Positions 30,554 to 31,570 of a DNA stretch of 64,000 nucleotides are shown piece after piece. Origin of the DNA: Escherichia phage PhiR41_1. The notes under the pieces were generated by a model. It was not told the origin of the DNA. It did no database searches and was given only the letters and a program-made list of their open reading frames with translations. The stretch lies in the sequence record PV340561, one strand, 5' to 3'. Numbering within the stretch: position 1 is the stretch's first letter; every line of letters starts with the position of its first letter. The position numbers were made by a program, and so were the translations under genes.

Positions 30554-30944
30554 ATCTGCAAACATATTCAAACCGTTGATAATGGCGGTCACAATTTGAT
30601 TCTTTTCTATAAGAATCCGTTGATCGCCACTACTCCCCTTCCATGCCTGCAATCACATCCTTAAATATCAATAGGTTACAGTTGTTTATACCAATAAGAA
30701 AACAACTAAATAACAGATCAACGAAACATCAACGCTTTCTCCCGATTTGGTCTAAAAAATTGACGTTTTCACACATCACTTCTTATACCCGTAATCCTAC
30801 GCAGCAGACAGCTCCACAGCGTCCAATTTTCACCACAGACGACTCAACACACTACCAACAAAAACACACGCTCAAAATCGCTCCCGTTGCGTTACACAAC
30901 CATATAAACAACTTATTTTCAGGCATAACAAAACAACCAAATAA

Positions 30945-31310
30945 CACATATGCCATTACCCAAAACAACCAACCTCTTTATGGCAGGCTACCGAAAAGAC
31001 CCACCTCTTCTTCCCAGGCTACCGGATAACCAACCTAACTTTCACAGGCAATCCGAAAACATTCATACGCGCGATACCCACGACACGCCATTACCCAAAC
31101 AGCGAAGAAACACCTGAACCGCTGAAACCCCAACGAAGCCTGTAACCGCAAGGTTTCTCTCAATCCCAAAAGACACGAAACATAACAATCACGGGAAACG
31201 CCATTACCCAATACACGAATAACTACAAAAGCCCTTCACACACTCCAGACAAACAACTCAAACACAATAACGAAAGGAATCGCCCACCTGCCATTACTCC
31301 ATACACGGAG
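30945..31310. repeat. four degenerate direct repeats with core GCCATTACCC
   Basis: Copies near 30950, 31088, 31200 and 31290, spaced 90-140 bp, inside a strongly G-depleted, ORF-free tract. Confidence 0.5.
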
Positions 31311-31539
31311 AAGAACAATCACCAAAACGACGAGAACACCCCATAGAAGAACCACCGCAAAACGAACGAAACCACATACATCGACAGAGAAAACAACACA
31401 CCCAATTCACCAACAGAAATAGTCGCCGTATAGAACGTTCTGGAAGGAGTAAGCATTAACGCCTATAGAGAGGTTGAGACAGATAAAACACGAAGAAAAC
31501 ACAACATGTATAGCGAAGAAGCAAGGTATGTATAAGTGG

Positions 31540-31570
31540 GGAGGGAAGGAGGGGTGTCGCCTCCTTTTTC
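31540..31570 (+). terminator. putative terminator hairpin
   Basis: AGGAGG-GGTGTCG-CCTCCT followed by TTTTT, closing the G-depleted tract. Confidence 0.45.

Follow-up and report, generated by a model that had tools for sequence, protein, structure and literature searches.

A G-depleted non-coding tract conserved in SSU5-type phage-plasmids: possible unfolded RNA or DNA assembly site

Between 30554 and 32121 of the Escherichia phage PhiR41_1 sequence (record PV340561), analysed here over a stretch of 64,000 nucleotides (the window), lies a gene-free gap of 1.57 kb, unusual in an otherwise dense genome. The gap houses a tract (30695-31450, + strand) that is A/C-rich, G- and T-poor, continuously richer in C than in G, and structure-free when read as + strand RNA. 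The tract is a real, widespread and uncharacterised non-coding element, and no description of it was found in the literature. It is tentatively read here as the source of a repressor-controlled, lytic-phase, untranslated and structure-free RNA acting as a single-stranded binding platform or decoy, a reading that we regard as possible and not as probable. A DNA-level assembly site is almost as likely.

Distribution, composition and coding status

Plasmids of E. coli of ~110 kb match the tract at 95-97.5% identity; it is present in 243 of 5,426 complete genomes, on plasmids in every case and on chromosomes in none. Phages Cyrano and CMS-2020a match it at ~96%, Klebsiella phage-plasmids at ~71% and Salmonella phage SSU5 at 70%, and because of these matches the window is assigned, by sequence, to the SSU5-type phage-plasmids. 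E. coli, Klebsiella, Enterobacter and Salmonella of clinical origin commonly harbour such phage-plasmids, with resistance genes among the cargo, and control of the phage-plasmids' lytic cycle is almost unstudied. Distant BLAST searches place the region in 835 PLSDB plasmids of seven enterobacterial genera (Klebsiella 427, Escherichia 224, Enterobacter 90, Salmonella 49, Citrobacter 25, Cronobacter 9, Shigella 7). A conserved 26-nt pattern recovers 45 IMG/VR loci; a 20-nt version of it gives 26 matches in species-representative genomes, 25 by chance and one, on a Buttiauxella contig, a true homologue. Over an alignment of 17 diverse representatives, in which all of 30566-32100 is alignable, conservation is 0.85-0.96 (the peak) in 30684-30800 and 0.68-0.94 across the tract. 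Within the E. coli lineage variable sites per nt number 0.094 in the tract versus 0.61 in the neighbouring repeat array at 31634-31745 (module 2). The tract is among the best conserved non-coding features of the family, standing at the junction of variable cargo and conserved core.

Base fractions from 30700 to 31430 are A.397, C.321, G.120 and T.161. The lowest-G 700-nt stretch of the window falls in the tract (G.114), and elsewhere in the window the lowest 700-nt fraction of any base is.149 (C). A first-pass annotation, made from the letters alone, had called the region strongly G-depleted, which holds, and almost free of G, which does not at a G content of 12%. GC skew runs from -0.41 to -0.52 and AT skew reaches +0.64; the skew sets in at ~30625-30695, upstream of the proposed promoter, and ends at ~31450. 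In every 78-nt window from 30695 to ~31450 the value of (C-G)/78 is at least 0.10, and the next longest such run on the + strand covers 139 positions. The composition is maintained in homologues from SSU5, Klebsiella, Enterobacter and Buttiauxella (A.34-.40, C.29-.33, G.12-.18, T.15-.19), and both skews far exceed what oriented motifs alone yield in the adjacent array. Exchange between A and C is the most frequent substitution (31% in the tract versus 11% in module 2), as predicted, by arithmetic from the substitution counts, for a stationary A/C-rich composition. A deamination-driven mutational skew was rejected because these transversions, not transitions, dominate.

As RNA, the + strand folds at only -0.09 to -0.12 kcal/mol/nt, whereas 214 control segments average -0.26 (sd 0.04); no other 300-nt sequence of the window, whichever the strand, is less foldable. 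At -0.23 to -0.25 kcal/mol/nt the - strand is unremarkable. Composition alone accounts for the low foldability (z = -1.36 versus shuffles). Folding beyond that of shuffled sequence, as expected of a structured non-coding RNA, was found neither in the tract nor in module 2 (z = +1.06), where a structured RNA was rejected for lack of excess fold, and an Rfam 15 covariance scan gave no match in 30500-32200 at E <= 1.

Stop codons number 5-12 per frame in all six frames of the tract, and its open reading frames (ORFs) are short, composition-driven and not conserved, in keeping with the first-pass annotation, which saw no convincing ORF. PGAP annotation of a 97.5%-identical plasmid places no gene between the equivalents of 30553 and ~32127, and PHROG and Pfam searches returned no family for any tract ORF. 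The point on which a protein-coding gene, unusual or decayed, could be argued comes from one lineage (L015, L031 and L047), in which a + frame is open over 217 codons where ~9-10 stops are expected, with the repeats read in a common frame. A repetitive basic protein would then be, or have been, translated from it. In one member (L015, IMG/VR 3300029577_000167) the repeats read RHYPIHGEEQ, RHYFICGEQ and CHYSIHGEEH, which may be a trace of coding ancestry or chance. The open frame has no ATG, however, and the same frame carries 3 stops in the isolated phage SSU5, 10 in the window and 3-11 in other lineages. The three codon positions take similar numbers of substitutions (12/12/16, 28/23/26 and 60/67/65), variable sites within the E. 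coli lineage fall 23/14/22, and that lineage has five single-base indels. A coding gene is accordingly very improbable, and the tract is non-coding. The homology search on which the first-pass annotation had staked its claim found no conserved frame in a region that is conserved in the 835 plasmids.

The composition is also that of a Rho utilisation (rut) region: a C>G run of ~750 nt that is unstructured and untranslated, with no conserved ORF. The C/G ratio is 2.67, and 636 nt hold two ATG, no GTG and one TTG as start codons. What Rho requires is at least 80 nt of RNA that is rich in C, poor in G, unfolded and untranslated. As far as composition can tell, Rho is the only known RNA-binding specificity matching the tract, which would qualify as a Rho substrate because of its ~750-nt C>G run, lack of structure and near-absence of start codons. 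Known rut regions, e.g. lambda tR1, are likewise C-rich, G-poor, unstructured and untranslated sense RNA past the end of an upstream gene. They differ in that the tract is ~10 times longer than needed, conserved in sequence, furnished with multi-copy motifs, and equipped with a promoter-like block and operators of its own; its likeness to a Rho site comes from composition.

Operators, lysogenic silence and the possible RNA

The window holds 14 copies of the palindrome AAACAANTTGTTT, for an expectation of 0.31 (positions 5681, 15899, 16628, 21171, 26254, 30177, 30228, 30906, 32455, 32939, 33844, 34609, 45676 and 45701), one copy lying inside the tract. Copies are found in two settings: overlapping a TTGTTT -35 element that is followed 17-19 nt on by GATAAT, GAAAAT or TATTAT, or just past a -10 element, within a recurrent sequence termed motif A (CCAATAAGAAAACAAC-TTGTTT), 10-40 nt ahead of a start codon and immediately before a ribosome-binding site. 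The tract copy, AAACAACTTATTT at 30906-30918, has one mismatch in the window and is perfect in other lineages, where homologues carry AAACAA[G/A/T]TTGTTT at the same offset with a variable centre base. A perfect palindrome of variable centre has, on sequence grounds, the signature of a protein-binding site. The motif A-like element that the first-pass annotation had noted near 30696 was recovered by motif scan as CCAATAAGAAAACAAC at 30691-30706, within 30680-30718 (+ strand); it holds an operator half-site. The window has 10 copies of the element where 0.8 are expected, and all but this one lie 10-40 nt upstream of a start codon. A second motif A-like copy, ATAACAAAACAACCAAATAACACAT at 30925-30949 (+ strand), is 88% identical to 30694-30718.

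The set of palindromes looks like a dispersed operator network of the P1 C1 kind, its repressor being a candidate only, and the small genes to the right of the tract each carry operators. The palindrome would define a putative regulon of the phage-plasmid family, exposed by this analysis. P1 is a phage-plasmid in which many dispersed copies of the C1 operator keep lytic units off, among them a C1-controlled lytic replicon (Op53/P53-repL-oriL). The likeness lies in a phage-plasmid with many dispersed copies of one operator; the operator sequence is another one and oriL of P1 lies within a protein gene. To our knowledge nothing in P1 is G-depleted.

The most conserved block of the gap (30744-30795, + strand) reads GATTTGGTCT-AAAAAA-TTGACG-N17/18-T(TATACC); conservation is 0.96 over 30744-30763 and the sequence is unique in the window. 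The promoter proposed in the first-pass annotation, TTGACG-N17-TTATAC, is indeed there at 30760-30788 and occurs once in the window. It has a good -35 element (5/6 matches) and an A-tract but a poor -10 (TTATAC or TATACC, without T6), and a sigma-70 scan finds no site in 30000-32600, the block failing because its -10 lacks the usual A2/T6. At the other end a terminator scan finds the hairpin and T-run that had been said to close the tract (31543-31570, + strand), with the GC-rich stem and following U-run of an intrinsic terminator. The hairpin core GAGGGGnnTCGC is conserved; the U-run is confined to the E. coli lineage and is absent from the SSU5 and Klebsiella lineages.

Transcription could be followed in a single RNAseq dataset, the only one found: strand-specific reads from an LF82 lysogen in stationary phase in LB (GSE154648, re-analysed in PMC9928086, S1 Table). 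CYRAN_103, which in the 96% identical Cyrano corresponds on the + strand to the initial 357 nt of the tract, has a log2(FPKM+5) of 2.32, i.e. 0 FPKM (fragments per kilobase per million). The tract is silent in lysogeny, and any RNA made from it would therefore be confined to the lytic phase. The gene upstream of the tract stands at ~52 FPKM and typical neighbours at 2-11; CYRAN_99 (apbC-like) is listed as expressed in lysogeny and CYRAN_100 (metG) lies slightly above the Cyrano background (PMC9928086). In the same lysogen CYRAN_43, a 'hypothetical protein' at 40268-40822 of Cyrano (OV696614) and outside the window, stands ~700 times above the phage-plasmid background (7084 versus ~10) and may represent a strongly expressed RNA or protein of lysogeny. 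The literature yielded no transcriptome of the lytic phase for any SSU5-type phage-plasmid.

In the reading tentatively favoured here, the tract would be the body of a non-coding transcription unit in SSU5-type phage-plasmids, held off by the dispersed operator system in the plasmid (lysogenic) state and turned on during the lytic cycle. The unit would yield an untranslated RNA of ~0.65-0.85 kb that could not fold, G and U both being scarce, and that might serve as an extended single-stranded platform or decoy for binding. In composition this RNA would be an exceptionally long Rho-loading (rut-like) substrate, and the conserved multi-copy motifs described below (a repeat, R1, in 4-6 copies and a 31-nt unit in 2-3) could point to a second, sequence-specific partner, protein or nucleic acid. 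Transcription itself, its timing and the binding partner are what we infer in this scheme.

Several observations argue for such an RNA. Low foldability is strand-specific, extreme on the + strand and ordinary on the - strand; the composition is kept in lineages only ~70% identical; and the skews are far stronger than those given by oriented motifs alone next door. The polarity is right, with the -35/A-tract block at the start and the hairpin with T-run at the end, both on the + strand. Operators in and before the tract together with 0 FPKM in the lysogen fit a tightly repressed lytic function. R1 copy number and spacing vary with multiplicity kept, which suits independent sites along a flexible strand. 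One maintained plasmid (NZ_CP083480.1, H18) tolerates IS1 inserted within the tract. Truncated copies of the tract, comprising its first 120-750 nt, also occur at ~5000-5750 in Klebsiella IncFIB/IncHI1B plasmids of 190-250 kb (L006, L007 and L008), adjoining a DUF262 gene, a type I restriction-modification system and insertion sequence (IS) remnants; they look like relics left when phage-plasmids recombined with large resistance plasmids. The IS1 insertion and these truncated copies show that the tract is dispensable for plasmid maintenance.

Other observations weigh against the RNA. A transcript of the tract has never been observed, its first 357 nt being silent in the lysogen; the -10 element lacks a T at -7, and no promoter is called by the scan; the terminator U-run is missing from two lineages; and G is already depleted 70-170 nt before the proposed start. 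Early termination by Rho would be expected for such an RNA, so that a further assumption is required for full-length synthesis. A DNA site is favoured by the repeats, which keep a strict orientation and are akin to the phased, iteron-like DNA array next door. Sponge motifs are at expectation (GGA 4 versus 3.8, (ARN)4 1 versus 1.1, (AAN)3 2 versus 2.4), anti-Shine-Dalgarno and ACA motifs in the tract are within chance, and a CsrA sponge, an Hfq sponge, an anti-Shine-Dalgarno mimic and a MazF (ACA) decoy were all rejected for want of motif enrichment. Antisense targets in the 64 kb amount to chance-level matches of 12-20 nt. The long unstructured RNA sponge suggested in the first-pass annotation thus keeps its unfoldable body and repeated motifs but not the abundant transcript that a sponge RNA calls for, at least in the lysogen, nor any of the sponge motifs that were sought.

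The sponge RNAs CsrB/RsmZ (of CsrA) and CrcZ (of Hfq/Crc) also display several copies of a short motif on accessible RNA, with a copy number that varies among relatives. They differ in that the motifs of the tract are not GGA or A-rich (AAN)n, its body is unfolded and not a series of hairpin loops, and it is silent in the lysogen. Type III antitoxin RNAs (ToxI) and phage pseudo-ToxI offer a precedent for a phage RNA decoy and share tandem repeats of ~31-36 nt in a non-coding unit ending in a terminator. The tract, however, has only 2-3 tandem units and no toxin gene follows. A type III toxin-antitoxin system was rejected, since the three tandem units are not accompanied by a Pfam domain in any of the six ORFs downstream.

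A narrower form of the RNA reading has an early-lytic, G-poor, unfoldable RNA of ~0.75 kb soaking up a host machine that binds single-stranded RNA, Rho being the candidate, and so relieving termination on the phage genome. We consider it unlikely, more so than any other use of the tract weighed here apart from a coding gene. Such an RNA would be the counterpart of the P4 Psu protein. If real, it would be the first case of an RNA acting as a decoy for Rho and would found a new class of long non-coding phage RNA, set apart by composition and not by structure. More broadly, if the product is RNA, selection can act on the absence of structure, which is invisible to covariance-based RNA searches, and a new phage way of handling Rho or another host RNA-binding factor could be revealed.

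Rho could instead act in cis. A long rut region with a backup hairpin would then form a zone of termination or insulation, stopping lysogeny-expressed cargo (metG, HD and others) from being read into the conserved small lytic genes. The rut composition over ~750 nt with hardly any start codons suits this role, as does the position: the tract begins ~70 nt past the stop codon of whichever cargo gene lies upstream, and the homology between lineages has its boundary exactly at the tract start. In LF82 the upstream gene stands at ~52 FPKM and the tract at 0, and since the downstream genes each carry operators, leak-through would matter. Yet Rho needs ~80 nt and not 750, and composition alone would suffice, whereas the sequence itself is maintained (9% of sites vary in the E. 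coli lineage versus 61% in module 2, and conservation across lineages is 70-95%), specific multi-copy motifs are kept, and the best conserved part is a promoter-like block within the zone. Reads moreover fall to zero within 110 nt, ahead of most of the tract. Insulation is on balance an unlikely explanation, if less so than the Rho decoy.

Repeat families and a possible DNA assembly site

The repeat R1 was found by repeat search as GCCATTACCC, exact at 30952, 31087 and 31200, and as GCCATTACTC at 31290, so that the four direct repeats of the first-pass annotation are confirmed. The full unit of ~28 nt reads GCCATTACYC-ATACACGGAGAAGAACA, and its copies span 30952-30979, 31087-31115, 31200-31228 and 31290-31318 (all + strand), the last (GCCATTACTCCATACACGGAGAAGAACA) being the best conserved in the alignment. 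Elsewhere in the 64 kb its core GCCATTACYC, i.e. GCCATTAC(C/T)C, has one reverse-strand copy only. Copy number is 4, 5-6 or 4-5 according to lineage and spacing varies from 41 to 157 bp, multiplicity being maintained. Overlooked at first pass were three strongly conserved tandem 31-nt units (CCGAAAAGACCCACCTCTTCTTCCCAGGCTA) at 30960-31052 (+ strand). The unit is present 2-3 times in an unfolded background; its copy number varies within the E. coli lineage, and some relatives have a 32-nt gap at 30968-30999, one unit having gone. Two A/C-rich direct repeats, also of 31 nt and with starts 36 nt apart, lie at 31309-31375 (+ strand).

Module 2 (31634-31745, + strand) consists of four to five iteron-like repeats (T)TTCNGGGAAAMGGCTNG at a spacing of ~22, 31 or 44 bp; it is not A/C-rich and only mildly skewed. 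The reverse complement of R1, TTTGGGTAATGGC, resembles its repeat TTTCGGGAAAAGGC at 8/10 positions, a likeness that could be chance. Motifs of this type are all on the - strand in the tract and all on the + strand in module 2. A motif common to the 31-nt units and module 2 was rejected, as a position weight matrix (PWM) of module 2 does not detect those units. A repeat TTTTCGGGAAA(A/C)GGCTG, spaced at ~22 bp on the + strand, forms arrays at 31634-31745 and 35175-35260 that bracket six small conserved genes. A Chi site (GCTGGTGG) stands on the + strand at 35285, bordering the second array, and the - strand has one at 31933.

These families are the material for the strongest rival explanation, a nucleoprotein assembly site at the DNA level, in which the whole 1.57-kb gap would be bound by phage proteins as a lytic origin or a region associated with packaging or a terminal repeat. 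R1, the 31-bp units and the module 2 repeats would be binding sites and the strand bias a by-product of their orientation. We rate this as possible, a little behind the RNA platform. Several repeat families within a gene-free 1.57 kb of a dense genome favour it, as do a 31-bp tandem of ~3 helical turns, the module 2 spacing, and the resemblance of R1 to the module 2 repeat with its strict opposition of strands. A second array of module 2 type lies 3.5 kb away (35175-35260), and the pair recalls P4 ori/crr. Further support comes from the protein-type palindrome inside the tract and the absence of transcription in lysogens. The cis-acting DNA region that the first-pass annotation had offered as its alternative has thus gained ground, through the operator palindrome and the strictly oriented repeats related to an iteron-like array. 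A precedent exists in T7, whose bases 171-390 adjoin the terminal repeat and carry CCTAAAG repeats (A.37, C.28, G.11, T.24): that region too is non-coding, G-poor and A/C-rich on one strand with dispersed, oriented short repeats. It differs in being 220 bp long, at a genome end and richer in T, and has no sequence similarity to the tract, in which there is no evidence of a virion end.

Against a DNA site, binding to duplex gives no reason for a two-fold strand bias (in G and in T) over 750 bp that is kept between motifs, and the adjacent array is only mildly skewed. R1 spacing and copy number are not conserved; the three 31-bp tandem units and the module 2 repeats are phased, whereas R1 copies lie 41 to 157 bp apart. 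The PWM of module 2 misses the 31-nt units, and the likeness to R1 is within the reach of chance. A by-eye check noticed no cluster of DnaA boxes and no AT-rich unwinding element, and gene orientation does not switch at the tract. By-eye matches to DnaA boxes, lambda-type nut boxA/boxB, IHF sites and an RP4-type nic were dropped, each being confined to one lineage and not conserved. Iteron origins and P4 ori/crr resemble the gap in having arrays of oriented direct repeats, spaced at ~2-3 helical turns, with a further array a few kb off. The differences are that the RepA iterons are of another sequence, no AT-rich unwinding element is seen, the strand bias is left unexplained and no initiator was identified. 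The plasmid replicon has its own iterons (GTATGCTGTCAGCGGT flanking repA) ~33 kb off and none are found in the tract; a plasmid RepA origin (oriV) was rejected because these iterons lie elsewhere and are different. An R-loop origin was rejected as well: reasoning from nearest-neighbour values gives no hybrid advantage to A/C-rich or G/U-rich RNA, and the sign of the GC skew is wrong for a + strand transcript. As a DNA site, the tract would probably correspond to the family's lytic origin or to a region connected with packaging. Whether it proves to be RNA or DNA, the outcome would provide a handle for curing or inducing these plasmids.

Boundaries of the gap and neighbouring genes

To the left of the tract runs a ~30-kb rightward array of early and metabolic genes that ends in lineage-variable cargo (apbC/metG/HD/DUF5983 in the window, different genes in Cyrano, SSU5 and Klebsiella). 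At ~26700-30092 of the window this cargo comprises a host-type apbC (- strand) and a full-length metG for methionyl-tRNA synthetase (+ strand). Homology between lineages starts abruptly at ~30575, directly downstream of whichever cargo gene is present, and because the cargo directly to the left varies by lineage, the left edge of the element (~30566-30575) is a module-exchange junction. The block at which this homology begins, TTGA(T/C)A-TGGCGGTCAC...TTTCTATAAGA..CGTTGATCGCC at 30566-30640 (+ strand), is conserved at 0.71-0.90. It carries CCGTTGAT at 30573 and 30617, out of three occurrences in the whole window. A hairpin in this block was rejected, as the two lineage changes do not compensate each other. 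A direct repeat ATCAACG, present twice at a distance of 11 nt (30717-30734, + strand) and inverted relative to a CGTTGAT pair at 30574 and 30618, is kept in all lineages.

The gap ends with the promoter/operator-like region of the next gene (32040-32121, + strand; motif scan and PGAP), which has a GATAAT and a motif A-like site at 32068. To the right follow, in order, the six small conserved genes of unassigned function, none of whose ORFs has any Pfam domain, a leftward regulatory cluster, a ParB-like gene, the terminase and structural genes. The large terminase subunit (TerL) gives only generic Terminase_6N/6C matches, from which no packaging mode can be derived. A scan for tRNA and tmRNA genes found none. 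Two strong terminator-like hairpins lie in a convergent intergenic region at 35640-35760, where a sub-threshold Rfam match to Hrs1 (E = 0.27, 35661-35727) is probably chance. Further right, the 172-aa protein encoded at 37192-37710 (- strand) matches Pfam Flag1_repress, the FljA family of phase-1 flagellin repressors, with E = 1e-68; FljA is an mRNA-binding translational repressor.

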